Below are positions 4,520 to 55,786 of a DNA stretch of 64,000 nt, piece after piece. The notes under the pieces were generated by a model. It was not told where the DNA came from and searched no databases. It worked only from the letters and a program-made list of their open reading frames with translations. This DNA is from a virus, in IMG/VR virus record IMGVR_UViG_3300042545_001134, positions 56,600 through 120,599 of that record; one strand, given 5' to 3'. Position numbers and translations under genes: made by a program. Position 1 is the stretch's first letter; every line of letters begins with the position of its first letter.

Positions 4520-4804
4520 CTATATGGTATTATTGGAATCAACTATCCTTCTATACAATTCATGTTGTAATCTATAAGTCTCTAATCTTTGTTGTTCTTC
4601 ATTAATAGTTATGGTATTATTCTCAATTGGATTGTGTCTTCTTCTATATCGTTCATGACGTATTCTATAACTTTCTTCTTCTGCCTCTATACCATACCTT
4701 AACGTATCTCTTATTCTTCTTCTTACAGATTCTTCTAATTCATTGGGATATACTTCTATTATACTATTATCAATATATCCCCTGCCAAGTTTAAAATTGT
4801 TCAT
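4520..4804 (-). CDS. Small hypothetical protein, MNNFKLGRGY family (94 aa)
   Basis: Shares its N-terminus MNNFKLGRGY and ~37 bp of start-region DNA with the next ORF. Confidence 0.45.
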   Translation of the reverse strand: MNNFKLGRGYIDNSIIEVYPNELEESVRRRIRDTLRYGIEAEEESYRIRHERYRRRHNPIENNTITINEEQQRLETYRLQHELYRRIVDSNNTI

Positions 4805-4813
4805 ATATATGGT

Positions 4814-5116
4814 TTAAGACATAAGACTGTCTATTATTTTATCCTGTAATTCAAATATACTATCCATGTTGATATTATCATAATTCAATTCCTCCATAAC
4901 GTATTCTGCCCAAACAATATAGTGGGTAAACGTGAGATTATCCTTTATTGATACAATATCCGTGGCAACCCTATTAAACCCCTCATATTTTATCTCAATA
5001 CGGATTGTGGTTTCATCTATATGATATAGTATTATCGATAACCCATATTGGGATATGATTTTGGTATTATATCCCCTGCCAAGTTTAAAGTTGTTCATAT
5101 ATATGGATTTCTTCAA
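4814..5116 (-). CDS. Small hypothetical protein, MNNFKLGRGY family (100 aa)
   Basis: Tandem paralogue of 4520-4804. The duplicated start region is tatcccctgccaagtttaaa(a/g)ttgttcatatatatgg. Confidence 0.45.
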   Translation of the reverse strand: MKKSIYMNNFKLGRGYNTKIISQYGLSIILYHIDETTIRIEIKYEGFNRVATDIVSIKDNLTFTHYIVWAEYVMEELNYDNINMDSIFELQDKIIDSLMS

Positions 5117-5195
5117 TTTATAGGTTTTAACCCCCTCGATTTTATATCTACACCATAAACAACGTAGAGATACTTATATTATAAAAGTAATCACA

Positions 5196-5273
5196 GTTGT
5201 ATATACCTTTCAAATTGTGATTATAAACAACTGCAGAACAAATATCAACCTGTGTAGAACAGTTGTATACACC
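5196..5273 (-). CRISPR. Solo repeat-spacer unit: degenerate 36-nt repeat, 30-nt spacer, 12-nt partial repeat fused to scaffold A
   Basis: 5196-5231 gttgtatatacctttcaaattgtgattataaacaac vs array consensus gttgtatacacctttcaaataagaggtatttacaac. Spacer is 5232-5261. 5262-5273 gttgtatacacc is the repeat 5' end. Confidence 0.7.
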
Positions 5274-5390
5274 AATAAAAAGTATTTAGTGAGTGGGTTA
5301 TTACCCCGAGATTATCTCCTCCTGTTTATTCAGGGAATCACTATGGGTTGTACAACCAACCCCATCACTTGTGGTGATGAAAATATCTTG
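5274..5390 (-). ncRNA. Conserved omega-RNA/tracrRNA-like scaffold, copy A, overlapping the 3' end of the nuclease CDS
   Basis: About 85% identical to 7151-7273 in its conserved blocks. Contains hairpins CCTG-tttatt-CAGG and GGGTTG-tacaac-CAACCC, the latter with a compensatory change in copy B. The strand is inferred. Confidence 0.65.
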
Positions 5391-6728
5391 TTTTTTCTGT
5401 AGACCTTTTAATAGTCTACCTTTCTTACTCTTACCTTTTACTTCGTTACCTTCAGCGTAAGTTATATTATATGCCCCAACAATATCGGCATCCTTTAGTT
5501 TACCGTAATCGTCACACTCAATGTTAATACAGGTGAATTTGGTTTTATCCTTATCCTTTCTATTCTCCTTATCCACATTCTTACAAGTTGGACATGTAAT
5601 AGATGTATCTTTTGGATTCACCCACAGGATTTGAATCCCCACCATCTTTGCTTTATATTCAATATCCGTTTGAAGTTGATAATATGCCCACGATTTTAAA
5701 AACAAATCTTTAGTGTTTGTGGTTATACCAGTTAAGTCCTCCATCTTAATAATACCCACATTGTATTGTTGGGCAATATCAATAACATCCCTACTGATAT
5801 CGTGATTCATTAACACGGACCAATTGTGTTCCTTTTCCTTTAATCTTTCCATTCCCAACATCTTTCTTGTTCTTCCATGTCCACCCTTGGCAAACTTCAT
5901 GGATTGTTGAAGTGCTCTTCGTATCTTATAGAACTTCATTCTCTCAGTTTGAATCTTTTCACCGATTGAAATCTGTGATGGTTGATGTTTCTCCCCGTCA
6001 ATGTATATTGATACTGGTCTGTTTATACCCAAATCAATTCCCATTACCTTATCAGGAATCATATCCTTTGATTTTGTATCAGGTACTGTACATGTTAATA
6101 ATAAAATAAAATCTTCATCCTTAATTTGAATAGAACTGGTGTTCATTTTGTATTCACCATTCAATATTCTATTGACAATTTTTTCATTACCACTTCTATC
6201 CCTTCCGTAATGTAATTTGAATTTAATTCCTTTGTGAATACTTCTCTCTGATGACGATAATGGTAAGTTAAAAACATAATCCTCCCCTTCTTTACTCACC
6301 ACAGGTTCTTTATTTACCGTACCTTTAAATGGTATTGTTAATGATGTTTTTCTAAATGATGGTATTGACATCTTTCCTTGTAAAATATCATAAAAACTCT
6401 CATCAATAGTTTTATATATCTTTTGACAAAACGACGATTTTATGTTCGATGATATGATGGTATTTTTCTTCATTAAGTTATAACCCATATTCTCCACCAT
6501 CGCCCCGTATTTTTCCTTGAAAATCTCTTTTGATTTAACTTTAGTAATATTAGTTGAATTTTTTATCTCATCCAACTCGTACTGGTTACAAACAGTTAAC
6601 CTAATAACTTCGTTTCCAATTTGAACCAAGTCAGATGCAATTCTTTTTACGTAATTGTACGATGCAGTTCTGTCCTTGCTGGTTTCACCAACCGCAATCA
6701 ATTTGATTTTTCTTGTGATTATTGACAT
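5301..6728 (-). CDS. TnpB/Cas12-like RNA-guided RuvC endonuclease (475 aa)
   Basis: RuvC-I GIDLGINRP, RuvC-II IIKMEDLTG, YKAKMVGIQILWVNPKDTSITCPTC..CINIEC zinc finger, RuvC-III DADIVGAYNI. This is the canonical TnpB/type V order. Confidence 0.85.
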   Translation of the reverse strand: MSIITRKIKLIAVGETSKDRTASYNYVKRIASDLVQIGNEVIRLTVCNQYELDEIKNSTNITKVKSKEIFKEKYGAMVENMGYNLMKKNTIISSNIKSSFCQKIYKTIDESFYDILQGKMSIPSFRKTSLTIPFKGTVNKEPVVSKEGEDYVFNLPLSSSERSIHKGIKFKLHYGRDRSGNEKIVNRILNGEYKMNTSSIQIKDEDFILLLTCTVPDTKSKDMIPDKVMGIDLGINRPVSIYIDGEKHQPSQISIGEKIQTERMKFYKIRRALQQSMKFAKGGHGRTRKMLGMERLKEKEHNWSVLMNHDISRDVIDIAQQYNVGIIKMEDLTGITTNTKDLFLKSWAYYQLQTDIEYKAKMVGIQILWVNPKDTSITCPTCKNVDKENRKDKDKTKFTCINIECDDYGKLKDADIVGAYNITYAEGNEVKGKSKKGRLLKGLQKKQDIFITTSDGVGCTTHSDSLNKQEEIISG

Positions 6729-6753
6729 ATCATGTTCTATTTTATGTTCATCG

Positions 6754-7093
6754 TTATATTAAAAACTTCAAGTAAGAGGTATTTACAACATAAATCCCAT
6801 TAGTTCGTATGGGTTCGTAGTTGTATACACCTTTCAAATAAGAGGTATTTACAACGTACTTGATGACCTGCAACAGGTCCATCAGTTGTATACACCTTTC
6901 AAATAAGAGAAACCCAAAGTACATGTTGTATACACCTTTCAAATAAGAGGTATTTACAACGTTTTCTCTTTCCCATGAGGTGCATCACCTGTTGTATACA
7001 CCTTTCAAATAAGAGGCATTTACAACTATTAACGGATGTACCAAAAATTAACATATAGTTGTATACACCTTTCAAATAAGAGGCATTTACAAC
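6754..7093 (-). CRISPR. CRISPR-like array of 36-bp repeats and 29-31-bp spacers
   Basis: Repeat GTTGTATACACCTTTCAAATAAGAGG(T/C)ATTTACAAC at 6820, 6925, 6991, 7058. Truncated copy at 6885-6910 and degenerate copy at 6754-6789. Spacers are unique. Array lies 25 nt upstream of the nuclease start codon. Confidence 0.85.
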
Positions 7094-7126
7094 ATGGTTA
7101 ACCCCATCTTATTATGAATCAACATA

Positions 7127-7273
7127 TTGTGAATGATTCCCTTATTAAAAAATAAAAGGTATTTAGTGAGTGAGAAGTTAATCTCCAGAAAAATTCCATC
7201 CTGTTTATTCAGGATTCACTATGGGCTGTACAACCAGCCCCACCAAAGTTTTACCTCTGATGAAAATATATTG
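7127..7273 (-). ncRNA. Conserved omega-RNA/tracrRNA-like scaffold, copy B, with a degenerate repeat at its array-proximal end
   Basis: Blocks AATAAAAGGTATTTAGTGAGTG and CCTGTTTATTCAGG..TCACTATGGGCTGTACAACCAGCCCCA..TGATGAAAATAT shared with copy A. An AT-rich promoter-like region follows at 7274-7340. Confidence 0.65.
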
Positions 7274-7465
7274 AAGTTTCCAATATTTCAAAGAACAATA
7301 CAAAGATACGTGTATTTTTTAGATATCCAAATTTTTTTTTAAAAATATTTTTTTATTCATCATCCTCCAACGAATCACTGTATGTGGGTTTATCCTTTGG
7401 GACATAGTCCTCATCACAATTATCAATATGGTCCTCGTCGTTCATAATAGATTTATTTTAAATAA

Positions 7466-7761
7466 CACCCTGATTTATCCAACTTACAGGTGTCGTGGCT
7501 GTCCCCGTTACCGGGTTAGAAATAGACTTTTGGATAGATAGTCAATCTAAATAGAGCCTTTCCCTATCAGAAGTTCCATATGGTTATCACACCACTTCTC
7601 ATCGTATTGGACATACTATCCGGTGATTAACCGAATCGCGTAGTCAGGACAGGAATCGAACCTATAACCAGTTTTCTAAGCCCTACGTGCAGGATTTTCA
7701 CTGCCTCGTACTGGTGTCTAATCGAGCATACACAGCGTTTAACCAATTCCGCCACCTGACT
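7466..7761. repeat. Segmental duplication, copy 1 (tRNA-like gene plus ~170 nt flank)
   Basis: 7580-7761 is near-identical to 9325-9506. 7466-7580 is about 70% similar to 9205-9325. Confidence 0.7.
7641..7761 (-). tRNA. tRNA-like element, atypically long (121 nt)
   Basis: Minus strand reads AGTCAGG..GGCG-GAATTGGTTAAA-CGCT (D-arm with GG)..ATAGG-TTCGATT-CCTGT (T-arm)..CCTGACT-A. The anticodon arm is not canonical by eye. Confidence 0.45.
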
Positions 7762-7949
7762 ATTAGCGTTCTATTAAAAATGGAAGTTATTGCGCCTATA
7801 CCATTTCGTTGATACCACCAATATGGCGTTCATTTTATTCCATTGTTCAAGTTTTGTGAACATTTTCAAATATAGATTTTTATTCCATCATTGCGCCTAT
7901 TTTTCTTGCTTTGCGCCTATTTTTTCCACCATAAGGCTAAAATTAGAAA

Positions 7950-8189
7950 TTATTTTCCAAATGTTTCGTTGTAGTATTGTTGAGAGCCAATTACATATTC
8001 ATCTGAAATGCCAAATTTGTAAGCATTCATTATCTCCTGCTTGTGCATTTCTTTGGCTTCGTCAACATCCACTAAAAAATTATCTATCATTGTTGTTCTA
8101 ACAATTCCATCTGGTTCAGATTCTATTATTAAAATTCTTCGTTTCAATTCAGATATTAACCATTCTATACTGCTTTTTTGTTTTTCCAT
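7950..8189 (-). CDS. Small hypothetical protein (79 aa), YYNETFGK-tail family
   Basis: C-terminus YYNETFGK shared with 8326-8544. Conserved upstream motif. Confidence 0.45.
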   Translation of the reverse strand: MEKQKSSIEWLISELKRRILIIESEPDGIVRTTMIDNFLVDVDEAKEMHKQEIMNAYKFGISDEYVIGSQQYYNETFGK

Positions 8190-8325: not shown

Positions 8326-8544
8326 TTATTTTCCAAATGTTTCGTTGTAGTATTTTTCTGCTGTTTCGTATGGCTTATCTCTAAAATGCCACGATTGATT
8401 ATAGCAATTGATGATTTGTTGCTTCTCCATTTCTTTGGCTTGTAAAAGAATATCTTTATACATTTTCCTTAATTCTTCTGAATCAAAAGATACTAATCCT
8501 AATAATTTTAATTCAATAAATCTTACTGCTGTTTGTTTTTTCAT
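8326..8544 (-). CDS. Small hypothetical protein (72 aa), YYNETFGK-tail family
   Basis: Paralogue of 7950-8189. Confidence 0.45.
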   Translation of the reverse strand: MKKQTAVRFIELKLLGLVSFDSEELRKMYKDILLQAKEMEKQQIINCYNQSWHFRDKPYETAEKYYNETFGK

Positions 8545-18188: not shown

Positions 18189-19061
18189 TTATAATATTTC
18201 TTTTAAAGTTATTTCTTGTGGTGAATTTATAATTTTAGGACCTTCTCTAAACCATTTAGTGATGATGTTTTTTTCACCCGAGATAACCGGTAGTCCGCAA
18301 TGTTTTGCGTATTCATTTGGTTTTCCATTTCTTAAAATATTAGACCAAACAACGGCAGTTCCGGTATTCGGAATTAATGTTTTATCGATTTTTGTGAAGT
18401 GTGTTTCACCACCCTCTTCCACATCATTAAGATAAACCATGAATGTCCACGTTCTTTGACCAAGATTAACTAACCCCACTTTATTGGGTTCGTAATTCTC
18501 ATCAAAATAATCACCGTGTTCTTTAAATTGTTGACCAACTAGATACTTCTGACCTTGTGGTATTTCACCCAACTCGTGGGGTAATTTCATAAACGAATGT
18601 ATCTTATCATTTACGGATTTATAGATTGGATTATCTAAAAACATATCACAGGTTGAACTGGTTCTAACGTCTTCAACATTAGTATTTGTAACCACTGTTG
18701 ATTGTCTCAACTTACCAACCATCTGTTCTATTAACTCCCCACATTCTTCACCCGATAAGAAGTTTGGTATTGTATAAATTTCCAAAAACTCAGTCTCGAT
18801 TCTATAAACACCTGAGTTATCACACAACGGTTTATAGAGAGGTTGAATGGTAAATGGTGGTGTTTCATTAAGGGCTACTTGGGTATCCTTTCTTTTTTGT
18901 ATCAAAGGATTTGAAGGTGTCATATCTAATTCTTTAGAAATTAAATCATATTCAAATCCATGATTTAATAATACGTTAAAGATATTTTCTTTACCTAAAC
19001 CATTTACTACGTTTGTCCAAATCCAAACTTTCCATTCCGGTGATAAACTTTTGATAATCAT
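18189..19061 (-). CDS. 2OG-Fe(II) oxygenase, prolyl 4-hydroxylase-like
   Basis: HGDYFDE..TWTFMVYLNDVEEGGETHF is a P4Hc-like H-x-D..H pattern. Confidence 0.55.
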   Translation of the reverse strand: MIIKSLSPEWKVWIWTNVVNGLGKENIFNVLLNHGFEYDLISKELDMTPSNPLIQKRKDTQVALNETPPFTIQPLYKPLCDNSGVYRIETEFLEIYTIPNFLSGEECGELIEQMVGKLRQSTVVTNTNVEDVRTSSTCDMFLDNPIYKSVNDKIHSFMKLPHELGEIPQGQKYLVGQQFKEHGDYFDENYEPNKVGLVNLGQRTWTFMVYLNDVEEGGETHFTKIDKTLIPNTGTAVVWSNILRNGKPNEYAKHCGLPVISGEKNIITKWFREGPKIINSPQEITLKEIL

Positions 19062-21054: not shown

Positions 21055-22320
21055 TTACACCATTGAGTTGTAATATGTGTGTGATTTTATGATTGCGTTT
21101 TCAATAACACCAATGATACTGGTAAGGTTAAATTCATCAATATTACCAATTGAAATTCTAAACCAACCCTTGTTTTCTTTTGAACCAAAGTATTCAAATG
21201 GTACAATACCCAAACCACACGTATTGATTAAGTAGGATATGTAATCCTCAGTATTGGCAAATGAGTGAGTGTATTCTATATAAACTGAAATGTATATTCC
21301 ACCTTCAGGTCTTTGACAGTCAACTCTGAATCCTTTACCTTTCATCTTATCAAACATATCACAAATAGAATGTGTAATGTGTTTGTATTTGGTGGTAACA
21401 TTTTGAGTGTGGTGGGTGAACTCAGGTAAAGTATCTGACATAAATTTACCAACCGCATTTTGTTCCGCCTTTGGTGCCCACGCTCCGATGTGTGAAAATA
21501 TCTCGGTTAGTTTTCCAATAATATCTTTAGGTCCAAACGCCCAACCAACACGAACACCGGTTGCATTAAGTGACTTGGAGATACCATCAACACAAATCAA
21601 ATAATCTTTAATCTCAGGACATAGTGTTAATGGATGAACAAACAAATCATCTTGAGTTAAATCAGAATAGATTTGGTCAAAGAAAAGGTACAGAGGTCTC
21701 GAATTTATGTGGTCTTTCCTAACGTTATTTTCATTTACAATTAAATCACAAATATCTTTTAAAACTTCAGGGTCTATAACACGACCTGTTGGGTTCTGTG
21801 GTGAACAAATACAAACCAATGATGTGGTCCTTTTAATTTTAACGTCAATATCCATTACACTCGGGAAGAATGAGTTCTCAGGTTTACATTCGATAACATC
21901 TTTAACCGCATTATGTAAGAATGAGTAGTGATTGTTATTCCACGATGGAACCGGATAAATAACAGAGTCACCATCATTTACGGTACCTTTGAATATGGTA
22001 TAGATTAATGGTCGAACACCTCCACCAATTAATATCTCTTCGGGTGAATAGTCAATGTCGTGTTTTGTTTTCATGTAATCACTAACCGACTTTCTCAAAT
22101 CTAGTTCTCCCTGTGATGCCGGATAGTTGGTTAGGTCTTCGTTGTACGCATCTTGAATGAAAAACTTTAACCTCTCAGGTATTGGCCATTTCTTCGAATC
22201 AAAATCACCTATTGTTAAATTGGCAACGGGTTTAGTTTTTGATATTTCTTTAATTTGTTGTGAGATTTTAATAATCTCTGAGCCGATGATTCCGTTTCCA
22301 ATTTTCGATAATCTTTTCAT
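21055..22320 (-). CDS. PLP-dependent aminotransferase (class I/II fold)
   Basis: GISKSLNATGVRVGW lysine region and overall AAT-like pattern. Confidence 0.6.
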   Translation of the reverse strand: MKRLSKIGNGIIGSEIIKISQQIKEISKTKPVANLTIGDFDSKKWPIPERLKFFIQDAYNEDLTNYPASQGELDLRKSVSDYMKTKHDIDYSPEEILIGGGVRPLIYTIFKGTVNDGDSVIYPVPSWNNNHYSFLHNAVKDVIECKPENSFFPSVMDIDVKIKRTTSLVCICSPQNPTGRVIDPEVLKDICDLIVNENNVRKDHINSRPLYLFFDQIYSDLTQDDLFVHPLTLCPEIKDYLICVDGISKSLNATGVRVGWAFGPKDIIGKLTEIFSHIGAWAPKAEQNAVGKFMSDTLPEFTHHTQNVTTKYKHITHSICDMFDKMKGKGFRVDCQRPEGGIYISVYIEYTHSFANTEDYISYLINTCGLGIVPFEYFGSKENKGWFRISIGNIDEFNLTSIIGVIENAIIKSHTYYNSMV

Positions 22321-46072: not shown

Positions 46073-47365
46073 TCAATTGGACAAGGGCGCCTTAATTGTT
46101 GAATGCGATTGGTAATTATCCGTTTTAAAAGTGATATCCACATCTAAAGTATTAATAACCTCATCTACGGTTAATAAATGCCAATTTTCATTACCTGAAT
46201 TGATTTTTAATGTGGGTAATTTAAATGGTTCTCTTGTGTGATTTGGTATTTTGTAAGAATTATAATACTCACTTAAACCACCACCGAATGGTACTTGTTC
46301 ATCAACCGCTGTTTTATAAAAATCACCCATTGCGGTCTTTAACAATTCTGTTCTCTCTTCGTGAGTGTATTTTCTTCCAATCTGTTCTTTAGCCTGTTCA
46401 ATATGATTTGAATACAAATGTACATCACCTAAATTACCAATCAACTCATCAGGTACCATATTAACAGTTTTAGCAATTATTTCCAATAACAATCCATAAG
46501 ATGCAATGTTGAATGGTAAACCTAAGAATGTATCTACTGAACGTTGATTCCACATTAATGAGATTGCTCTTGTTGGGATATTATGATTGTTTAGAACTTC
46601 TAATGTCCTTTCTTCAGGAATTACTGTCCCATAATTACCACCTCTTCTAAACTCAGAAGGGTCTAAATCTCTTTTTGTAAATTCTAATACTCTATCATTC
46701 AAACTCAACTCTCTTGTATAAACTTGAAATCCATAATGACAAGGAGGTAAAGTCATTTTATCCAACTCCCCCACATTCCAAGCACTAACCATTAATCGTC
46801 TTGAGTCTGGATTTGTTTTAAGGTCGTTGATTAGATTTTGGATTTGGTCTATTGGTGGGTATTTGAAATATGATACCCCATCGAGATATTCATCCTCGGT
46901 TTCCCAACTTCTCCATTGTTTACCATATATTGGACCTAACTCACCCCATTTCTTAGCAAACTCATCATCGGTTTTGATTTTGTCAATAAATTCTTCTATT
47001 GTAAATGGTTCAGTTAATGTTCTATTTTTCTTAGAATTCTCTAATAATTTGGTTTTACCAACATATTCACCTTTATTATATCTTTTAATATAGGCTTGGT
47101 AAGCATCACCATTCCAAATGTGACAATTGTTATCAACTAAATATTTAATGTTTGTATCACCACGTAAGAACCATAATAATTCAGTTACAATAGTTTTCCA
47201 AGCCATCTTCTTGGTTGTAAGTAAAGGAAACCCTTCACTCATTTTATGACGTATTTGTCTACCAAATACTGAAATGGTACCACCATTTCTTGTTTCTTTC
47301 TTAACTCCATTATCAAGAATGTCTTGTAGGAGTAATTGATATTGTTTATCTATGTTATTCATCAT
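46073..47365 (-). CDS. thyA: Thymidylate synthase (ThyA family) with three insertions, 430 aa
   Basis: FPLLTTKK..ELLWFLRGDTNI, LPPCHYGFQVY (active-site Cys), DTFLGLPFNIASYGLLLEIIAKT, DVHLYSNH. Confidence 0.75.
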   Translation of the reverse strand: MMNNIDKQYQLLLQDILDNGVKKETRNGGTISVFGRQIRHKMSEGFPLLTTKKMAWKTIVTELLWFLRGDTNIKYLVDNNCHIWNGDAYQAYIKRYNKGEYVGKTKLLENSKKNRTLTEPFTIEEFIDKIKTDDEFAKKWGELGPIYGKQWRSWETEDEYLDGVSYFKYPPIDQIQNLINDLKTNPDSRRLMVSAWNVGELDKMTLPPCHYGFQVYTRELSLNDRVLEFTKRDLDPSEFRRGGNYGTVIPEERTLEVLNNHNIPTRAISLMWNQRSVDTFLGLPFNIASYGLLLEIIAKTVNMVPDELIGNLGDVHLYSNHIEQAKEQIGRKYTHEERTELLKTAMGDFYKTAVDEQVPFGGGLSEYYNSYKIPNHTREPFKLPTLKINSGNENWHLLTVDEVINTLDVDITFKTDNYQSHSTIKAPLSN

Positions 47366-47802
47366 TCAAATGTTTGTATTTTGGCATCTACTTCTTTTAA
47401 TTCTGACCATGTTCCAAGATATGTGATTGCCCTAACTTTCCTGTTATCAATCCACACATACTCTTGTCCGTCTTTGATTCTTGGTTTGTCCATAACCAAT
47501 CCATGGTATTTAAAACCTTTTTCTTTTAACCACGTTTCGGTAACTTCTCTGTCTTTACTTTCTCTTGCAGTAAAGAAGGTAATGATATGACCTTCATCAT
47601 ACCATTTATTGATTATATCCAATGCGTTTGGGAAATGATTTGCGGTTACATATAAATGACTGTCTTCGTTTTTGATGTCATCACAGATTGTTCCGTCGAT
47701 ATCGATTAAAAATACCTTACCCATTTTATTATTCTTCGTCTTTTTTATACTCTTCAAATAATTCATCGTTTGAAAGTGTTCCGTATTTTGTTGACAAGTC
47801 AT
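47362..47802 (-). CDS. HAD-like hydrolase (146 aa)
   Basis: KVFLIDIDGTICDD motif I. Confidence 0.4.
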   Translation of the reverse strand: MTCQQNTEHFQTMNYLKSIKKTKNNKMGKVFLIDIDGTICDDIKNEDSHLYVTANHFPNALDIINKWYDEGHIITFFTARESKDREVTETWLKEKGFKYHGLVMDKPRIKDGQEYVWIDNRKVRAITYLGTWSELKEVDAKIQTFE

Positions 47803-48859
47803 CGGTTTTAATTTCAGCGTACATTACATGTAATGTATTTTTTAACTCATCTGCTAATGATAGTGATTTACAAATAACAGTTAAGATTCTGTAAGGGTCA
47901 GCGTTTGAACCGGGTCGTCTATCTTCAAGATAACCCCTCCACGTTTCTCCGACGGTTTTTGGAACCCTAATTGATGCACCTCTATCAGATACACCCCAAC
48001 TGAATTTATCAATTGATTGTGTTTCAAATTTACCCGTTAATCTTAAATGATTATCGGAACCATAATTTTCAATATGAATTTTTGTCCTACTTTCAAATGT
48101 TTTAAAGATTGCGTTGAAGTATTCTTCCCCACCTGTCTCTCTCATTTTTTGGTTTGAGAAATTGGCATGTAAACCTGAACCATTCCATTCACCTGTCGTA
48201 ATTGGTTTAGGGTGTAACTCAATTGCCACCGAATATCTTTCAGAAATTTTATTTAAGAAGTAACGAGACATCCATAAGTCATCAGCACCTTTAAGTTTAC
48301 CTTTAGCAAAGATTTGATATTCCCATTGACCCAATGCAACTTCTGCGTTTGTTCCTTCAAGATTGATACCATAGTTTAAACACATATCTAAATGTTCATC
48401 ACTAATAAGTCTACCAACAACATGACCACCAACACCGCAATAGTATTTTCCTTGTGGGTCAATCATCCCACCATTTTCAAAACCCAATACAGGTTGGTTA
48501 TGTCCTGAACGAATAAAATATTCTTGTTCAAATCCAACCCAAAAATCGGTATCTTCTTCCCCAACTTTTGCTCGGTAATTTGATGGGTGAATCTCATTGT
48601 TTCCGTCAAGTACTTCACACAACACATAAACTGTTGGGTAATCATCTTTACTGTTATTGTTTTTATAAAACCTAACAGGTTTTAAGTAACAATCGGAGAA
48701 GTTACCCTCCGCCTGCATTGTTGAACTTCCATCGAATCCCCAGTTAGAGATGTCATCAATGGTTAACTCGCCGTTATAGTCAACGACTTTAATTTTACTT
48801 CTAAGATTTGGTTCGGGTGAATATCCATCCAACCAAACGTACTCAAATTTAATTTTCAT
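47729..48859 (-). CDS. glnII: Glutamine synthetase, type II-like
   Basis: YVWLDG..NLRSK N-domain, GFEQEYF, KPITTGEWNGSGLHANFS, RGASIRVPK, YLEDRRPGSNADPY. Motif-for-motif with eukaryote-type GSII. Confidence 0.8.
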   Translation of the reverse strand: MKIKFEYVWLDGYSPEPNLRSKIKVVDYNGELTIDDISNWGFDGSSTMQAEGNFSDCYLKPVRFYKNNNSKDDYPTVYVLCEVLDGNNEIHPSNYRAKVGEEDTDFWVGFEQEYFIRSGHNQPVLGFENGGMIDPQGKYYCGVGGHVVGRLISDEHLDMCLNYGINLEGTNAEVALGQWEYQIFAKGKLKGADDLWMSRYFLNKISERYSVAIELHPKPITTGEWNGSGLHANFSNQKMRETGGEEYFNAIFKTFESRTKIHIENYGSDNHLRLTGKFETQSIDKFSWGVSDRGASIRVPKTVGETWRGYLEDRRPGSNADPYRILTVICKSLSLADELKNTLHVMYAEIKTDDLSTKYGTLSNDELFEEYKKDEE

Positions 48860-49082
48860 TCTGTTGTTTTTTTAATTTATCTATGCATTTGTAAATGCAA
48901 TATGATTCTTCGATTGTGAACGCACCTTCTTTGTTCGCATGGGTAAGTGCGATATCGATAAGTTTTAATGCGTTTTCAGGTTCAATAGTTTCAAGGAATT
49001 CTTTAAAGTCCGATTCCTCTTCATATTCAAAGTCCCCGTTAAAAAGTGTACTCATATCAAAAATATAAGAAATTATTTTCAA
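48849..49082 (-). CDS. Small hypothetical protein (77 aa)
   Basis: ORF-track frame. Confidence 0.4.
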   Translation of the reverse strand: MKIISYIFDMSTLFNGDFEYEEESDFKEFLETIEPENALKLIDIALTHANKEGAFTIEESYCIYKCIDKLKKQQNEN

Positions 49083-49104
49083 ATTTCCAAGTAATTATTG
49101 TAAT

Positions 49105-49467
49105 ATGTCAGTAATAATTAACGATAAACAGTACGTGGCGGAATATCTGTCGACTCCCGAGGAAATAATGAAGGGAATGATGGGTAGAGACACCCTTGAG
49201 GGTTGTATAGTCTTCAAGATGGGAATGGGTCACCATTCGTTTTGGATGAAGAACTGTTACATACCATTGGACATTGTATTCGTGAATAAGAATAGAATTT
49301 CACATATCCATAAAAACTGCGAACCCGCCGGAAATAAACTTAATCCACCGAGATACACCGGTATCGGGGACCATGTCATTGAATTTCCAACGGGAACCGC
49401 TAATAACTTTAAAGTGGGTGATAGGGTTGCCATGTACTTAGGTGCACCTGTGAACCCCGTTCGTTAA
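49105..49467 (+). CDS. DUF192-family protein
   Basis: EGCIVFKMGMGHHSFWMKNCYIPLDIVFV pattern. Confidence 0.45.
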   Translation: MSVIINDKQYVAEYLSTPEEIMKGMMGRDTLEGCIVFKMGMGHHSFWMKNCYIPLDIVFVNKNRISHIHKNCEPAGNKLNPPRYTGIGDHVIEFPTGTANNFKVGDRVAMYLGAPVNPVR

Positions 49468-50321
49468 CCTTCGTATTCGGGGAACAAATTATAATCAAAC
49501 TGATTGATTCTCTGACGAGAAATCTCGGTGTACTTTTCAGATAGTTCAAATCCGATATAGTTTCTACCCAATTTCTTTGCCGCAAGTGCCGTGGTTCCCG
49601 AACCTGAGAAACAATCCAATACCAAATCATTTTTAAATGAAAGGATTTTAATTGCCTTAACCGGAATATCCATTGAGAAGGTTGCCTTAGTTAATGACTT
49701 CGTATCGTTGAAGTATTTCCACTGACCGAACACCAACTCCATAAACTCATTCTTATCTTTATCAGAATAGATTCGTTTAGTTCTTGTTTTGGGGTCTTCA
49801 CCTTCTTCCACCTCAACGTCAACTTGTGCTTCAGTATATGACCACGTTGAGATACCTTTATCTTTCTTCTTGTAGTCTTTCTTATATGCAAGAATAACAC
49901 ATTCTTTTGGATTATATATGTACGGTGCTGACGGTGACATCCACGAACCCCACGCAGTTGTTTTAGAACGGTGTGGAGAATCTTCCTCTAAATCGACAAC
50001 ACCAAAGAAACCGAATCCAATCTCTTTCATTATCTGCCAGTATTCAGATACGATGAATACACGACCGCCACGTTCCCTTACGTTTACTTCATAAGGTATG
50101 TTAATCGCAACACGACCATCGTCCTTTAATGTTCTGTAAACTTCAGATAACCAAGTTCTACACCACTCAAAGTAATCACCCATAGGTACATCGTCTATAT
50201 GTGTATCATATGCGATACCAACATTATATGGTGGTGATGTGACCACTAAATCTATTGTGTTATCACCCAATTCTTTGAATAGTTCAACACAATCTCCGTT
50301 ATAAATTTTATTCGATTCCAT
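49464..50321 (-). CDS. DNA methyltransferase (N6-adenine/N4-cytosine, beta-class)
   Basis: N-terminal IDLVVTSPPYN (DPPY motif IV), later FSGSGTTALAA (motif I). Confidence 0.75.
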   Translation of the reverse strand: MESNKIYNGDCVELFKELGDNTIDLVVTSPPYNVGIAYDTHIDDVPMGDYFEWCRTWLSEVYRTLKDDGRVAINIPYEVNVRERGGRVFIVSEYWQIMKEIGFGFFGVVDLEEDSPHRSKTTAWGSWMSPSAPYIYNPKECVILAYKKDYKKKDKGISTWSYTEAQVDVEVEEGEDPKTRTKRIYSDKDKNEFMELVFGQWKYFNDTKSLTKATFSMDIPVKAIKILSFKNDLVLDCFSGSGTTALAAKKLGRNYIGFELSEKYTEISRQRINQFDYNLFPEYEG

Positions 50322-50410
50322 TTACAATTACGTTTTTATCGGTTATCTTCTGATAAAGTATAAGGAATTAAAACCAATAAACCAAATATTTAATAAAAAA
50401 GAAAAACATT

Positions 50411-50583
50411 ATGGGATGCGGATGTAAAAAGAAGAACGTTCAAACAACAGTGAACCCTTCACCAGCGACAATAACATTAAACGAAACATTTCAACCAACA
50501 ACTACTATGGACCAACAGGTTCAACAGTTGGTACAGAAGATTGAGGAGATTAACGAAACTCTTGATTCTCAGGGGGAACAATA
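50411..50583 (+). CDS. Small hypothetical protein (57 aa, not in ORF track)
   Basis: ATG at 50411 (MGCGCKKKNVQTT..), followed by a terminator hairpin. Confidence 0.35.
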
Positions 50584-50602
50584 ATATATTATCGGTTTTA
50601 AG

Positions 50603-50638
50603 ATAACGGATAGAGTAAAAACTGTCCGTTATTTTTTG
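50603..50638 (+). terminator. Rho-independent terminator
   Basis: ATAACGGA-14 nt-TCCGTTAT followed by TTTTTT. Confidence 0.55.
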
Positions 50639-50670
50639 ACCATATAATATATATAAATTTATATACTTAT

Positions 50671-50868
50671 ATGAAAGCACAGACAAAACTTACGAGTGTT
50701 CACATTTTAGATGATGTGTACAAAAAATTCAAAATCAACACGATAGATGGTTCAATTAACCTACAGAAGTTAGTTAATAGGGCTCTTGATTTATACAATA
50801 CAAGAGAGGATTTTAGAGACCAGATAAACAACCATAACGGTTTGGCAACAACGGGGTCTAAATTCTAA
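50671..50868 (+). CDS. Small hypothetical protein (65 aa)
   Basis: ORF-track frame leading the glycan module. Confidence 0.4.
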   Translation: MKAQTKLTSVHILDDVYKKFKINTIDGSINLQKLVNRALDLYNTREDFRDQINNHNGLATTGSKF

Positions 50869-50870
50869 CT

Positions 50871-52229
50871 ATGAAGAAAAAGATTCTATTATTATCTGAT
50901 GATTTAAGAATGACATCGGGTGTTGCTACTATGTCAAAAGAATTGGTAATGGGTACTATTCACAAGTACGATTGGGTACAGTTGGGTAGTGCAATCAACC
51001 ATCCTGAGGCAGGTAAAATTGTAGATATAAATGCGGACATTAGGGAGAAGACAAGAGTACTTGATGCAAACCTTAAAATCATTCCAAGTAATGGATATGG
51101 TAATATTTTTACATTGAGGTCTCTTATTGAGTCTGAGAAACCTGACGCAATATTACACTTCACCGACCCACATTACTGGCAATGGTTGTACGAGGCGGAA
51201 CATGAGATTAGACAACAAATTCCAATTCTATATTACCACGTGTGGGATAACCTACCTGACCCAACCTATAATAGAAACAATTATGAAAGTTGTGATTGGA
51301 TTGGTTGTATCTCCAAACAAACATATGGTTTAGTCCATAGAGTGGGTAAAATGGATAACGAACCAACCTTCAAACCTTTGGAGGATTGGCAAATCAGTTA
51401 TGTTCCTCACGGTATTAATTCAGATGTGTTCAAACCAACAGATAGTGTTGCTGATGATTTAAAGAAATACATTTACGAAGATAAAGAATATGATTTTATT
51501 CTATTCTATAACAATCGTAACATCAAAAGAAAACAACCGGGTGATGTGATATTATCATATAAATTATTCTGTGATTCTTTACCTAAAGAACAATCCGATA
51601 AATGTTTATTGTTAATGCACACCACACCAATCGATGAGAATGGTACCGACCTACCGGCGGTGGCTAAAAGTGTTTGTCCCGACTATAATATTAAGTTTGT
51701 TAACTTAAAATTGGAACAGAATAAATTGAATGAGTTGTATAATATTGTTGACTGTACAATTAACATTGCGAACAACGAAGGTTTTGGTTTGGGTACCGCC
51801 GAAAGTATAATGGCTGGCACACCAATCATTGTTAATGTCACAGGTGGATTACAAGACCAATGTGGTTTTGATTACACCGCAGACAATTACATAACATTCG
51901 GTTCACTCCACAATAGAAAGAAACACGGTTCAACTTTACATGGTGAATGGGTTGTACCCGTTTGGCCATCCGTTAACAATCTAAATGGTTCGGTCCCAAC
52001 TCCTTTCATTTATGAAGACAGAGTAAACAATAATGATGTTGCCGGTGCAATTTCTGAAGTTTATGGTTGGGGTAAAGAAGGAAGAAAAGAACGAGGATTA
52101 AAAGGTAGAGAATGGGCAATCGAAAACCTATCAAGTAAAGTGATGTGTGATTCATTAATTGATGGAATTGAAACAACTTTCAAAAACTATAAACCTAAAA
52201 AGAAATTTGAATTATATCGTATAGTATGA
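50871..52229 (+). CDS. Glycosyltransferase, GT4-like
   Basis: EGFGLGTAESIMAGTPIIV is an E-x7-E-like motif. Confidence 0.55.
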   Translation: MKKKILLLSDDLRMTSGVATMSKELVMGTIHKYDWVQLGSAINHPEAGKIVDINADIREKTRVLDANLKIIPSNGYGNIFTLRSLIESEKPDAILHFTDPHYWQWLYEAEHEIRQQIPILYYHVWDNLPDPTYNRNNYESCDWIGCISKQTYGLVHRVGKMDNEPTFKPLEDWQISYVPHGINSDVFKPTDSVADDLKKYIYEDKEYDFILFYNNRNIKRKQPGDVILSYKLFCDSLPKEQSDKCLLLMHTTPIDENGTDLPAVAKSVCPDYNIKFVNLKLEQNKLNELYNIVDCTINIANNEGFGLGTAESIMAGTPIIVNVTGGLQDQCGFDYTADNYITFGSLHNRKKHGSTLHGEWVVPVWPSVNNLNGSVPTPFIYEDRVNNNDVAGAISEVYGWGKEGRKERGLKGREWAIENLSSKVMCDSLIDGIETTFKNYKPKKKFELYRIV

Positions 52230-53473
52230 GTAAACCTTTTTTATTATTTAGAGGACCCGTTGAAACATTAAGTGGGTATGGAGCACACTCGAGAGATTTA
52301 TTGAGGTCTCTTCGTGACATGGACTTATTTGAAATAAGGGTGGATTCGTGTCATTGGGGTTCAACACCAAAAACGGCATTACAAGAGGATACCGAATATA
52401 ATAAGTGGATACTTGCGCATATCGTTAAAGTGATACCCGCAACTCCCGATGTTTATGTTCAGGTTACAGTACCAAATGAATTCCAAAAGATTGGTAGGTT
52501 CAGTATCGGTATAACTGCCGGTATTGAAACAACAATGGCATCAAAGGAATGGATTGATGGTTGTAACAGAATGGATTTAATCATCACAACTTCAACCTTC
52601 TCCAAGGAAGTACTACTTCAAACCGTTTACAATGAAACTGATAACCTAACCGGTAAACTAATTAAACAACATAAAATTGAGAAACCTGTTGAGGTTCTTT
52701 TTGAGGGTGTTGACACTGAAATTTATAATGATAAATTTTCAGGGTTAGATGTTGGAATTAACGAAGATTTTTCTTATCTTTTTGTTGGTCACTGGTTAAA
52801 AGGTAATTTAGGTCAGGATAGAAAAGATGTTGGTATGTTAATTAAGTGTTTCTCTGAGGCATTTAAGGATTCGGAAGAACAACCCGCATTAATTCTTAAA
52901 ACATCTTCAGCATCTTTTTCGATAAAAGAAAGAGAAAACTTTAAGAAGAAAATTTCTGATTTGGTTAAGGGAATTGAAAACCCACCGCCAATCTATCTTT
53001 TATTCGGTGAGTTAACAGACAAGGAAATGAATGAGTTATACAATCACCCAAAAGTGAAGGCAATGGTAACCTTAACAAAAGGCGAAGGATTCGGTAGACC
53101 TCTACTTGAGTTCTCAATGACAGGTAAACCTATTCTTGCATCTAATTGGTCGGGACATAAAGACTTCTTACCAATGGATAAGGCAGTAATGTTAGGTGGT
53201 TCATTGACTGATGTTCATGAGAGTGTTGTTGATTCATTTATCATCAAGGGGTCAAAATGGTTTACACCAAACTATGGTGAAGTTGTTGAGATTATGAGAA
53301 TGGTTAAAAATGAATATGACACGTTCTACGGTAACTCTCAAGTTTTGATGGAAGAGAATAGAGAAAAATATTCGATGTCAAAAATGACCGAGAAGTTTGA
53401 ATCAATCATAACACCATATGTGGTTAAACCTAAAGAAGTTAAATTAAAAATACCTCAGTTAACAAAACTATAA
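52226..53473 (+). CDS. Glycosyltransferase, GT4-like
   Basis: GEGFGRPLLEFSMTGKPILASNWSGHKDF. Confidence 0.55.
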   Translation: MSKPFLLFRGPVETLSGYGAHSRDLLRSLRDMDLFEIRVDSCHWGSTPKTALQEDTEYNKWILAHIVKVIPATPDVYVQVTVPNEFQKIGRFSIGITAGIETTMASKEWIDGCNRMDLIITTSTFSKEVLLQTVYNETDNLTGKLIKQHKIEKPVEVLFEGVDTEIYNDKFSGLDVGINEDFSYLFVGHWLKGNLGQDRKDVGMLIKCFSEAFKDSEEQPALILKTSSASFSIKERENFKKKISDLVKGIENPPPIYLLFGELTDKEMNELYNHPKVKAMVTLTKGEGFGRPLLEFSMTGKPILASNWSGHKDFLPMDKAVMLGGSLTDVHESVVDSFIIKGSKWFTPNYGEVVEIMRMVKNEYDTFYGNSQVLMEENREKYSMSKMTEKFESIITPYVVKPKEVKLKIPQLTKL

Positions 53474-53754
53474 TGGGATTACTTGACAATTTTAAATTAG
53501 GTAGAGAAAATGAAGACAATTCATTTTTATTTACGAACCATAACCTTCAATTATTTACATTACAACCGACAGTTACATTTAATCAAACCGAATGGATGTT
53601 TCAATTTGATGAAGGTGAACCGACGGTTTTCGCAACACAACAAGAAGAATCCAATTTAACGATAACACTCAACAACACCAATCACGCATCGATAGAATTT
53701 ACGGGACCCAATAATCAAAAATTTAAAATATTCGCAAGAGAAAGACAACAATGA
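53473..53754 (+). CDS. Hypothetical protein (93 aa)
   Basis: ORF-track frame. Overlapping-stop architecture with its neighbours. Confidence 0.4.
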   Translation: MGLLDNFKLGRENEDNSFLFTNHNLQLFTLQPTVTFNQTEWMFQFDEGEPTVFATQQEESNLTITLNNTNHASIEFTGPNNQKFKIFARERQQ

Positions 53755-54377
53755 AAATAAGTTATGCAATTACCGTTTGTGATGAGTTACAAGAAATCAA
53801 AAGACTTGTACCGTTTCTTTTAGAACATAAAAGACCTGAAGATGAAATCATAGTTTTATATGACCAAAAAAATGGGTCGGATGAGGTAATTGATTTCTTA
53901 TTACCATTTAATAGATTCCCACATGTTCAAACATGGAGAGGTATGGTTTTCGTAAATGATTTTTCTATTTGGAAAAACAAATTAAACGATTACTGTGGTG
54001 GTGATTACATTTTACAATTGGATGCGGATGAAATGATTACCGAGGAACTAATTAAAATGTTACCGGCAATACTTGAATCAAATCCTGAAGTTGATTTGTT
54101 TGTACTTCCTCGAATAAACACGGTGGATGGTATAACCGAAGAACACATTAACAAGTGGGGATGGAAACAAGATGAACAGGGTAGAATTAACTTCCCTGAT
54201 TGGCAGGGTAGATTATACCGTAAAGGTTTAAACTGGTATGGTAAAGTTCATGAAAAAATTATAGGGGCAAAGAAATATTCGATTATGCCTGAAGATGAGG
54301 GATTTTGTATCCTTCATCCTAAAACAATCGAGAGACAGGAAAGACAAAATAATTTTTACAGTAAAATTCAAAAGTAA
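53751..54377 (+). CDS. Glycosyltransferase family 2-like (208 aa)
   Basis: QLDADEMI DxD-type motif. N-terminus KISYAITVCDE. Confidence 0.45.
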   Translation: MKISYAITVCDELQEIKRLVPFLLEHKRPEDEIIVLYDQKNGSDEVIDFLLPFNRFPHVQTWRGMVFVNDFSIWKNKLNDYCGGDYILQLDADEMITEELIKMLPAILESNPEVDLFVLPRINTVDGITEEHINKWGWKQDEQGRINFPDWQGRLYRKGLNWYGKVHEKIIGAKKYSIMPEDEGFCILHPKTIERQERQNNFYSKIQK

Positions 54378-55135
54378 TGAAGTTAATTTTAGCAACTGGG
54401 TCCGATATAAATTATATGACCAAGATGAGACCATACTTTAAATCAATTGAGAAAAACTCAAACTTCGATAAGAATGTTTTGGTTTTTGTTGGTGATGGGG
54501 AAGGTTTATCATTACCATTTAAAACTATCGATATCGCAACATTATCGATTTCAGACGTACAGGCATTGAATAATAATAAGTGTGTTCAACACGGGGATTT
54601 CTTAAACTCCAATCACTTCAATTCAATAACCCAAGATGATGACGTTATCTTCTATACTGACGGTGACATCATCCTTCAACGTAACATGACTGACGAAGAG
54701 TTAGAACAATTCAGAAACTTCAAAGATGGTGACGTTTATGTTGGTTATAATGCATCACCAACTGACACATTAATGATTGAATCGGGTAGATTAGGTCAAA
54801 CGGGTGTTAAGGTTGACGGTGTGAGTGACAAACCGTGGGATAAGATTAAAGTCTATAACACCGGTGTTCTCGCAATGAATAAAAGAACTTGGGCTAAACT
54901 ACTAAGTGACTATGTTGAATTGTATCCGTCAGTTGAACCAATGTTTGCGCATTACGCAAAACAACAATGGTTGATTTCATTTTTGATTGGCACAAGAGAA
55001 GATTACAATATAATCGAAATGCCGTACCATATCCATAATCATTTACATTTCCCAAGTCCTGAGGGTACAATCCAAGATAAAAACGGTGATGTATTTTTTA
55101 ACAATAAAAAAGTATTATTCAAACACAAATGGTAG
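54377..55135 (+). CDS. Putative nucleotide-sugar transferase-like protein (252 aa)
   Basis: FYTDGDIIL DxD-like motif. Weak evidence. Confidence 0.35.
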   Translation: MKLILATGSDINYMTKMRPYFKSIEKNSNFDKNVLVFVGDGEGLSLPFKTIDIATLSISDVQALNNNKCVQHGDFLNSNHFNSITQDDDVIFYTDGDIILQRNMTDEELEQFRNFKDGDVYVGYNASPTDTLMIESGRLGQTGVKVDGVSDKPWDKIKVYNTGVLAMNKRTWAKLLSDYVELYPSVEPMFAHYAKQQWLISFLIGTREDYNIIEMPYHIHNHLHFPSPEGTIQDKNGDVFFNNKKVLFKHKW

Positions 55136-55785
55136 AAATTTTTAAAAGGATATCTGAAATTGATATCAAAGAAATCGATTTAAATGTTTTAGAAACAATT
55201 CTCCCCACATTTGGTATGAATGGTGAGAATTCGAGAGAGTTACCTTCAGAATTGTCTGAACACTTTAATGAAGGTATTCGTTTTTGGCAGTACCCAAATC
55301 AATTTGCTCCGTATCTTAAACAAATATCAAAATATAGAATTAAATCGTATCTTGAAATTGGTTGTAGGTGGGGTGGTACGTTTATTATAACAAAGGAAAT
55401 ATTAACCAAAATAAATGGTGAAGTTAATGGATTCGCGTGTGACTTTATGCCACAATCAAGGATGCTTGACGAATACCAAAAATATGGTAATTTTAACTAC
55501 TTACAAACTCATAGTCAAAAATTAAAAAGAGAATCAATAAATCAAGATATTGATTTAATTTTAATTGATGGTGACCACAGTTATGAAGGGTTAAAAAGAG
55601 ATTTTGAAATCTGTAAACAATATAACCCCAAATACGTATCTTTTCATGATATATGTAGTGACGCATGTCCTGGCGTTGTTAAGTTTTGGAATGAAATTAA
55701 GGAACAATATAAACACTATGAATTTATGAGTCAATATGATAGTGTTGACGGTAATTTTTTAGGTATTGGTTTAATAGAGATTTAA
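55129..55785 (+). CDS. Class I SAM-dependent methyltransferase (TylF/MycF-like)
   Basis: YLEIGCRWGG motif I-like. LILIDGDHSYEG. Confidence 0.5.
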   Translation: MVEIFKRISEIDIKEIDLNVLETILPTFGMNGENSRELPSELSEHFNEGIRFWQYPNQFAPYLKQISKYRIKSYLEIGCRWGGTFIITKEILTKINGEVNGFACDFMPQSRMLDEYQKYGNFNYLQTHSQKLKRESINQDIDLILIDGDHSYEGLKRDFEICKQYNPKYVSFHDICSDACPGVVKFWNEIKEQYKHYEFMSQYDSVDGNFLGIGLIEI

Positions 55786-55786
55786 T

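Follow-up and report, generated by a model that had tools for sequence, protein, structure and literature searches.

A probable CRISPR-Cas12f system of a large phage, flanked by two guide-RNA modules of which one carries a guide fused to its scaffold

The locus described here lies in a 64,000-nucleotide (nt) stretch of viral DNA (IMG/VR virus record IMGVR_UViG_3300042545_001134, positions 56,600 to 120,599; hereafter the window, whose numbering is used except where a related locus is named). It is likely to be a type V-F1 (V-U3-like) system of the CRISPR-Cas12f kind, carried by a probable large phage and flanked by two guide-RNA modules that are read in the sense of the nuclease gene. A sequence-only reading of the same DNA had presented it as a virus-borne miniature nuclease with an adjacent array and no adaptation genes. 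That reading overstated the case, as phage miniature effectors of this description have already been reported (PMC12297358, PMC11748809, bioRxiv 10.64898/2026.03.27.714800), and the RNA layout is therefore the less ordinary part of the locus. Two of its features go beyond that reading. A scaffold resembling a tracrRNA (trans-activating CRISPR RNA) is encoded in two copies, and the repeat at position 5196 is not a stray element but part of a second, downstream guide module. Both modules carry a conserved structured scaffold RNA and an array with variable spacers, and in the downstream module one guide is fused in cis to the scaffold.

The effector gene occupies positions 5301–6728 on the (−) strand and encodes 475 amino acids (aa) in an open reading frame (ORF) with an ATG start. 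This start assignment is judged to be right because the N terminus is conserved in homologues, where T5, R6, K7, I8 and L10 are nearly invariant. The catalytic residues D232 (GIDLGIN, RuvC-I), E330 (MEDLTG, RuvC-II) and D415 (DADIVGA, RuvC-III) and the zinc-finger cysteines C379, C382, C400 and C405 are invariant in an alignment of 38 family members, in agreement with the earlier view of a TnpB/Cas12-superfamily nuclease whose RuvC triad and zinc finger are intact. Judged from these residues, the Cas12f homologue looks catalytically intact. A reading as a nuclease-dead repressor was rejected because the D/E/D triad is intact.

Profile and structure searches place the protein within Cas12f. Pfam PF07282 (Cas12f1-like_TNB) scores 54.4 bits against a cutoff of 26.3, identifying the TNB zinc-finger domain, while Pfam OrfB_IS605 scores slightly under its cutoff and the NCBIfam umbrella family guided_TnpB scores 147.9 against a cutoff of 100. 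The PADLOC profiles Cas12u3 (9.3e-82) and Cas12f (1.4e-80) are covered over almost their entire lengths. Among solved structures searched by sequence, Al3Cas12f (9NZO/9NZR) is the best match at 1e-48, followed by AsCas12f at ~4e-36, with further matches to OsCas12f, CnCas12f1 and SpCas12f1; ISDra2 TnpB was undetected in this search at E ≤1. An AlphaFold2 model of the protein (mean predicted local distance difference test score, pLDDT, 83.5; predicted template modelling score 0.70) was compared with known folds by Foldseek, and AsCas12f and Al3Cas12f were the best matches, with template modelling (TM) scores of 0.68–0.79, compared with 0.42–0.61 for TnpB structures. Given these full-length matches to Cas12f profiles and structures, the 475-aa protein belongs to Cas12f of type V-F1 (V-U3-like) and does not found an effector class of its own. 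Thus, the idea of a new hypercompact class gives way to assignment to an existing family, and the size of the protein indeed falls in the Cas12f range, as had been noted.

It had also been claimed that cas1, cas2 and cas4 are absent within 30 kb on either side. PADLOC detected no Cas1, Cas2 or Cas4 among the 85 other window ORFs of at least 80 aa. The window holds only ~5.2 kb on one side of the gene, and the claim was therefore checkable on one side only. Weak accessory matches among the same ORFs were 2OG (1e-17), a DEDDh exonuclease (3.6e-7) and Csn2 (1.4e-5); the first probably arises from a 2OG-Fe(II) oxygenase at 18189–19061 and the last is probably spurious.

In size, domain order, catalytic triad and zinc finger the protein agrees with the V-F1 enzymes of known structure (Al3Cas12f, 9NZO/9NZR; AsCas12f, 8J12, 7WJU and 8DZJ; OsCas12f, CnCas12f1 and SpCas12f1), and the window locus likewise has an array of 36-nt repeats and a tracrRNA-type scaffold that has several stems and exceeds 100 nt. 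For Al3Cas12f and its relatives, tracrRNA-dependent nuclease activity is experimentally validated, with T-rich protospacer-adjacent motifs (PAMs) and guide RNAs of 129–156 nt (PMC13186708). About a third of residues are identical between Al3Cas12f and the window protein, as estimated by eye from the alignment. Unlike the known V-F1 systems, the window family is found only on viral and metagenome contigs and the window scaffold occurs twice; the overlap of one copy with the 3′ end of the ORF and its cis guide may be further differences, guide layouts having been compared among window-family loci.

The huge-phage effectors Cas12j (CasPhi) and Cas12l (Caslambda) have 700–800 aa and use CRISPR RNA (crRNA) alone, without a tracrRNA. 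They resemble the window system in their carriage by huge phages, lack of adaptation genes, short arrays and presumed role in competition between elements, but the window protein is of 475 aa, is accompanied by a tracrRNA-like scaffold and is unrelated to them beyond the RuvC core (Cas12j E 0.79). A reading as a CasPhi-like system free of tracrRNA was rejected. Closer in size are the Cas12f-like proteins of oral huge phages, such as opdg_150_142 with 465 aa (PMC12297358), and of soil huge phages (PMC11748809), which according to passages of those papers are array-adjacent like the window gene; the likeness is one of published descriptions, and the same passages describe neither a tracrRNA nor a dual or cis-fused guide layout.

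Upstream of the gene, a tracrRNA-like scaffold RNA is encoded at 7151–7262 (−) (covariance-model match 7119–7290, 156.5 bits). It contains a 5′ hairpin together with stem B and the long-range AGUGA/UCACU helix around two hairpins. Both scaffolds of the locus end with an invariant CACUCAC followed by the anti-repeat UAAAUACCUUU, the complement of AAAGGUGUAUA from the 3′ part of the repeat. The upstream CRISPR array extends over 6754–7093 (−) and consists of four full repeats, one truncated repeat and one degenerate terminal repeat, with four full spacers and one spacer remnant. The full 36-nt repeats (7093–7058, 7026–6991, 6960–6925 and 6855–6820) have the consensus GTTGTAAATACCTCTTATTTGAAAGGTGTATACAAC, and the full spacers measure 31, 30, 29 and 30 nt. 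A truncated 3′ repeat fragment of ~24 nt (6908–6885) stands behind the 16-nt spacer remnant, and the degenerate terminal repeat (6789–6754) ends 25 nt from the cas12f ATG, all of which bears out the array association first noticed. Since the degenerate repeat is at the gene-proximal end, the leader is placed on the 7094 side, and array and gene share one reading direction. Periodic, near-identical 36-mers of this kind cannot be chance.

Between the upstream scaffold and the first repeat is a tail (7094–7150, −) made of a cis repeat half that has decayed to ATTCACAAT and a 34-nt “frozen spacer”. The frozen sequence is identical in the related locus L002 and shows a single substitution and a single deletion in L001, while the true spacers of these loci share nothing. 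The first full repeat comes ~72 nt past CACUCAC, as in 8 of the 14 upstream-type copies. This tail may also have a role as array leader or promoter, and the upstream scaffold, from its sequence, looks like a dedicated trans-acting tracrRNA. Moreover, the 5′ half of the upstream repeat, GUAAAUACCUCUUAUUU, is nearly identical to the scaffold's own end, CUAAAUACCUUUUAUUU, and the repeat therefore looks like a copy of the terminal hairpin of the scaffold. The likeness could reflect common descent, or a shared need to pair with the same 3′ half.

The downstream scaffold RNA (5274–5387, −; covariance-model match 5253–5407, 135 bits) is omegaRNA-like in its placement. It overlaps the last ~29 cas12f codons. 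Its identity to the upstream copy is 77%, and the stems show compensatory changes. A cis-fused element at 5232–5273 (−) follows, in which a 9-nt loop joins the anti-repeat to GGTGTATACAAC (5273–5262), corresponding to the last 12 nt of the repeat, and a 30-nt spacer occupies 5261–5232. Scaffold, repeat half and spacer together make up a putative natural single-guide layout, like an omegaRNA or an engineered single-guide RNA (sgRNA), to which a small array is appended. This mini-array (5128–5231, −) comprises a second-type repeat, GTTGTTTATAATCACAATTTGAAAGGTATATACAAC (5231–5196), a 32-nt spacer (5195–5164) and a decayed terminal repeat that keeps only GTTGTTTAT. The second-type repeat matches the downstream-array repeats of L172 and L007 and not the upstream repeat; a reading of 5196–5231 as a degenerate copy of the upstream repeat was rejected because the sequence matches the repeat type of relatives' downstream arrays. 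The fused downstream spacer differs in every relative.

A scan of the region for sigma-70 promoters returned 16 sites against 14.8 expected from shuffled sequence. Because this count equals chance, the sites upstream of the scaffold (7291–7263) and of the array (7133–7106) are not relied on. A motif, GTTCTTTGAA(A)ATATT, found in the window at ~7286–7296 (−), lies ~25–40 nt 5′ of most free-standing scaffold copies and is kept in relatives, but is missing from downstream copies within the coding region. It overlaps the sigma-70-like TTGAAA-17-TATTTT at 7291–7263 and may be a promoter, with the site count at chance expectation. The best sigma-70-like match of the region (TTGATA-17-TATAAT, 11/12) is at 5220–5248 (−), where it is made of downstream spacer and second-type repeat and faces the small ORFs at 4814–5116; it may be a chance match.

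The structure of the ~115-nt scaffold was derived with RNAalifold from a MAFFT alignment of 22 copies, taken from the window and 15 related loci. It consists of a hairpin followed by the long-range AGUGA/UCACU helix enclosing two more hairpins, and single-sequence minimum free energy folds of both window copies reproduce this architecture. Among the 22 copies, 13 of the 19 scaffold pairs show two-sided changes, and 95.7% of cells are paired, compared with 78.5% in column shuffles and 32–46% with slid partners. The covariation score is 0.51, versus at most 0.13 for slid partners, and by eye the variable 5′ hairpin covaries too. A covariance model finds exactly two matches in the 64-kb window, both in gene sense (E 7e-28 and 1.4e-23). 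The model's alignment includes both window copies, and the independent evidence is provided by matches in loci outside it (L250–L256). No match was obtained in relatives of 28–30% identity or in the bacterial TnpB loci tested, and no Rfam family matches the scaffold RNA. Both scaffolds are conserved structured RNAs.

Within the clade of the window (75–95% protein identity), the downstream scaffold retains 90–96% nucleotide identity, compared with 75–93% for the cas12f gene and 57–85% for its third codon positions. Where the gene stands at 75–80%, its third codon positions are at 57–66%. The upstream scaffold falls to 76–78% in L007 and L008. In L001 and L008, stem D changes from GGGG/CCC to GGAG/CTC with pairing kept. 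The part of the protein encoded over the downstream scaffold is a tail that is predicted to be disordered (residues 455–475, pLDDT <50) and that is missing in relatives of 441–459 aa, whose scaffold begins past the stop codon. That the downstream scaffold is better conserved than the gene, changes its stems in a compensatory manner and overlies a disordered protein tail leads us to conclude that selection acts on the RNA.

The scaffold adjoins the gene in all 23 distinct family loci examined. Upstream and downstream copies are both present in 6 loci, an upstream copy only in 7, a downstream copy only in 8, and two downstream copies, each with its own array, in 2, such that two scaffolds occur in 8 of the 23. 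A cis repeat half is located 27–54 nt past CACUCAC in 15 of 17 downstream-type copies, and in 14 of those 15 the next repeat ends 56–66 nt further on, L001 having none. Where the cis half is lacking, in L013 and L170, the downstream scaffold is followed by a full repeat. Both modules of L170, which is on a viral contig of 246 kb, are complete and differ in their repeats, of which there are five upstream and eight downstream, and the anti-repeat and repeat of L170 co-vary (AACAACC with GGTTGAC), as they do in part in L013. In nearly every downstream copy and in two upstream copies, the guide module opens with a scaffold that bears a first guide in cis.

A database search returned 558 clustered homologues at E ≤1e-10, with 44–95% identity among the best 120 of the 558. 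Where sources name them, the label is nearly always that of a transposase (such as “IS605 OrfB family transposase”) and Cas12f is never used. Many of the homologues are on contigs of 100–340 kb. The close family is seen only on viral and metagenome contigs of up to 311 kb, with orthologues on IMG/VR viral contigs of 29–246 kb. An orthologue on a 311-kb contig has the same downstream neighbours (bPH_2 and DUF1281_C) at 55% protein identity, which points to vertical inheritance at a fixed position and not to transposition. In a pattern-based scan of 185,579 bacterial and archaeal species genomes, one for each species, nothing was closer than 27–36% identity, and these matches look like ordinary TnpB, several of them multi-copy in a genome (for example, Geobacillus).

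The window itself has PHROG matches to virion-structural and tail-fibre proteins, thymidylate synthase and DNA methyltransferase, and carries glycosyltransferase and metabolic genes of the kind known from huge phages among dense small ORFs on one strand. A megablast search with 20 kb of the window gave no match among GenBank phages. From the viral orthologues and the virion and tail-fibre matches, it is probable that the locus is borne by a large phage, as had been proposed.

The spacers differ wholly between the window and L002, a relative with 95% identity, and also from those of all other relatives. Their targets were sought in several ways. The BLAST search suggested with the sequence-only reading was run for the 7 window spacers against GenBank phages, the window and the fetched loci and gave no target, and 88 spacers of relatives likewise found none among GenBank phages. 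Six exact scans of IMG/VR with 20–23-nt sequences (three window spacers, two from L001 and one degenerate spacer from L250) revealed no target, both L001 spacers matching only their own array. When 57 spacers were compared by local BLAST with the window and with 246 fetched loci, only self matches came back, and a scan of the window for partial self-targets found only chance 11–12-mers.

Neighbouring spacers in relatives' arrays are in some cases variants of one another (85–90% identical) or exact duplicates. Such pairs are found in L250 (4962–4991/5028–5057), L013 (3091–3120/3157–3186), L002 (5636–5664/7468–7495) and L251 (2431/2497). In L002, the pair joins an upstream-array spacer (5636) with the downstream cis-fused spacer, at 85% identity. 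These variants suggest repeated targeting of one variable protospacer, or exchange between modules. An arms race with escaping targets would produce such pairs, although they are not proof of one.

Solved Cas12f enzymes act as homodimers on their guide RNA, and by analogy the nuclease would bind the scaffold, probably in the same form. In the first module, crRNAs derived from the upstream array would pair in trans, through AAAGGUGUAUA of the repeat, with the anti-repeat UAAAUACCUUU. In the second, the first guide would come already attached, as in the omegaRNA of TnpB or an engineered sgRNA, and may be cut from the cas12f messenger RNA as TnpB does. The resulting complexes are expected, from the behaviour of related enzymes, to cleave double-stranded DNA that is flanked by a PAM and complementary to the spacers. 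The most likely use to the phage would be in countering rival phages, mobile elements or the host, and new spacers could be gained through host Cas1-Cas2 or by recombination between arrays.

Several observations weigh against this interpretation of the locus as a phage-borne Cas12f system with two guide modules. The repeat folds on itself (−10.9 kcal/mol), cofolding prefers this self-fold over pairing with the tracrRNA, and the predicted trans duplex of repeat and anti-repeat is only ~2.6 standard deviations better than that of shuffled repeats. In the downstream array, which is short, the last repeat has decayed. A protospacer was found for 0 of ~95 spacers, and therefore neither a PAM nor a target class can be inferred. 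The genome scan, being pattern-based, could miss bacterial relatives. Finally, none of the genes identified in the window encodes a capsid, portal or terminase protein, which makes the phage assignment likely but indirect.

The shortness of the downstream array is also the starting point of one alternative, in which only the upstream tracrRNA and array are functional, while the downstream scaffold with its half repeat and mini-array would be what is left, in decay, of an ancestral gene-tracrRNA-array layout. More distant relatives with the downstream layout only would fit this history, as would the one to two units and decayed last repeat of the window array and the retention in L001 of a fused guide alone with no array behind it. 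However, no part of the locus is better conserved than the downstream scaffold, its stems stay paired through compensatory changes, the attached spacer varies among all relatives, and L170 has a full eight-repeat downstream array besides its upstream one. We therefore consider a relic unlikely.

Rather unlikely, too, is an origin of the window in a bacterial chromosome island or large plasmid, the system then being an ordinary V-F locus of the host after loss of the adaptation genes. The lack of an identified capsid, portal or terminase gene and the presence of metabolic genes (glutamine-synthetase-like, aminotransferase and glycosyltransferases) are compatible with such an origin. Nevertheless, orthologous loci are on IMG/VR viral contigs, no close relative appeared in the pattern-based scan of 185,579 species genomes, and the PHROG virion and tail-fibre matches are set among dense one-strand small ORFs without known function. 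The gene content also resembles that of described huge phages, though there is no similarity to known phage DNA.

The conservation of the 34-nt sequence in the upstream tail among the window, L001 and L002, unlike that of true spacers, raises the question of whether it or the cis-fused guide is regulatory. In such a scheme the nuclease would bind a phage or host promoter by partial complementarity, in the manner of the long-form tracrRNA of Streptococcus pyogenes Cas9, and for Cas9 a regulatory role of natural single guides is established. Yet neither sequence matches the 64-kb window beyond chance (11–12 nt, internal, with no anchored match), the fused downstream spacer is as variable as an immunity spacer would be, and the catalytic residues are intact, making a regulatory function quite improbable.

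A far more doubtful proposal is that a transposon-borne TnpB (IS200/IS605 or IS607) landed in a phage, with the downstream scaffold as its omegaRNA and the repeats as incidental, for although guided_TnpB scores above its cutoff, databases label the family “IS605 OrfB transposase” and the scaffold overlaps the 3′ end of the ORF with a guide directly after it as in an omegaRNA, the gene is single-copy in the window with both scaffold matches at the cas12f locus, its syntenic position beside bPH_2 and DUF1281_C genes is maintained down to 55% protein identity, its sequence and fold are nearer to solved Cas12f than to TnpB, all relatives have genuine arrays with variable spacers, and no tnpA-like gene was noted among the called neighbours.

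With IS200/IS605 TnpB and its omegaRNA (ISDra2, 8H1J/8EXA) the window protein shares its fold (TM 0.42–0.61), and the locus shares a same-strand scaffold over the 3′ end of the ORF with a guide attached directly. Unlike those elements, the window locus is present in one copy, is syntenic across phages and has no transposon ends, with no tnpA-like gene noted among the called neighbours, and its guide runs into CRISPR repeats and not into transposon-flanking DNA.

Intermediates between transposon and CRISPR systems, named TranC, were reportedly described by Jin et al. in Cell in 2025. Passages of two accounts portray TranC systems as using both a single-molecule right-end RNA and split tracrRNA and crRNA (PMC13565253, bioRxiv 10.64898/2026.03.27.714800), and a passage of the first sets out the proposal that type V systems arose by splitting of the TnpB guide RNA into tracrRNA and crRNA, through intermediates using both (PMC13565253). 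One TranC, CauTranC9, is phage-borne (bioRxiv 10.64898/2026.03.27.714800). The window likewise has a TnpB-sized effector adjoining a CRISPR array, and the two RNA layouts of TranC appear to be the exact pair that is encoded and conserved at its locus. By its full-length Cas12f profile match, the window protein is classed as a Cas12f and not with the TnpB-like TranC clades.

These parallels allow a tentative evolutionary scenario, for which we would claim somewhat less than even chances. A phage-restricted clade within bona fide Cas12f may keep a living intermediate of the transition from omegaRNA to tracrRNA plus crRNA, its nuclease running on single and split guides together. As parts of the same scenario, the second module in some genomes, including the window, would have lost its cis guide and become a trans-acting tracrRNA, and the array looks like a tandem duplication of the scaffold's terminal hairpin and guide.

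In any case, the locus adds a large, mis-annotated and apparently virus-only branch to Cas12f, whose members are nucleases of a size suited to adeno-associated virus and have defined candidates for their guide scaffolds. A single gene is accompanied by both fused and split guide layouts, both apparently under selection, and the family could thus allow the recently proposed RNA-splitting route from TnpB to type V CRISPR to be tested by comparison of natural systems. The locus also has a bearing on the upkeep of CRISPR arrays by phages that have no adaptation genes of their own.

Several features of the neighbourhood were noted in addition. A transfer RNA (tRNA) gene at 7640–7761 (−), directly upstream of the CRISPR locus, matches the Rfam tRNA family with 37.3 bits over 121 nt. 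ARAGORN with introns allowed models it as a tRNA of 90 nt that possesses a long variable arm and is interrupted by a 32-nt intron, with a doubtful Gly(GCC) call; it was missed by default ARAGORN and by an Rfam search of 5000–8000 in E-value mode. L002 has two tRNA-like repeats at the equivalent position. Tandem small paralogous ORFs flank the locus. Those at 4520–4804 and 4814–5116 (−) have start regions that are 95% identical over 42 nt (MNNFKLGRGY), and those at 7950–8189 and 8326–8544 (−) have the C-terminal YYNETFGK in common.

Farther away, a class I/II aminotransferase is encoded at 21055–22320, and a cluster of metabolic and surface-modification genes spans 46073–57977. The cluster includes thymidylate synthase (46073–47365), a glutamine-synthetase-like gene (47729–48859), DNA methyltransferase (49464–50321) and UDP-galactopyranose mutase (55787–56884), together with two large glycosyltransferases and a GT2 glycosyltransferase.

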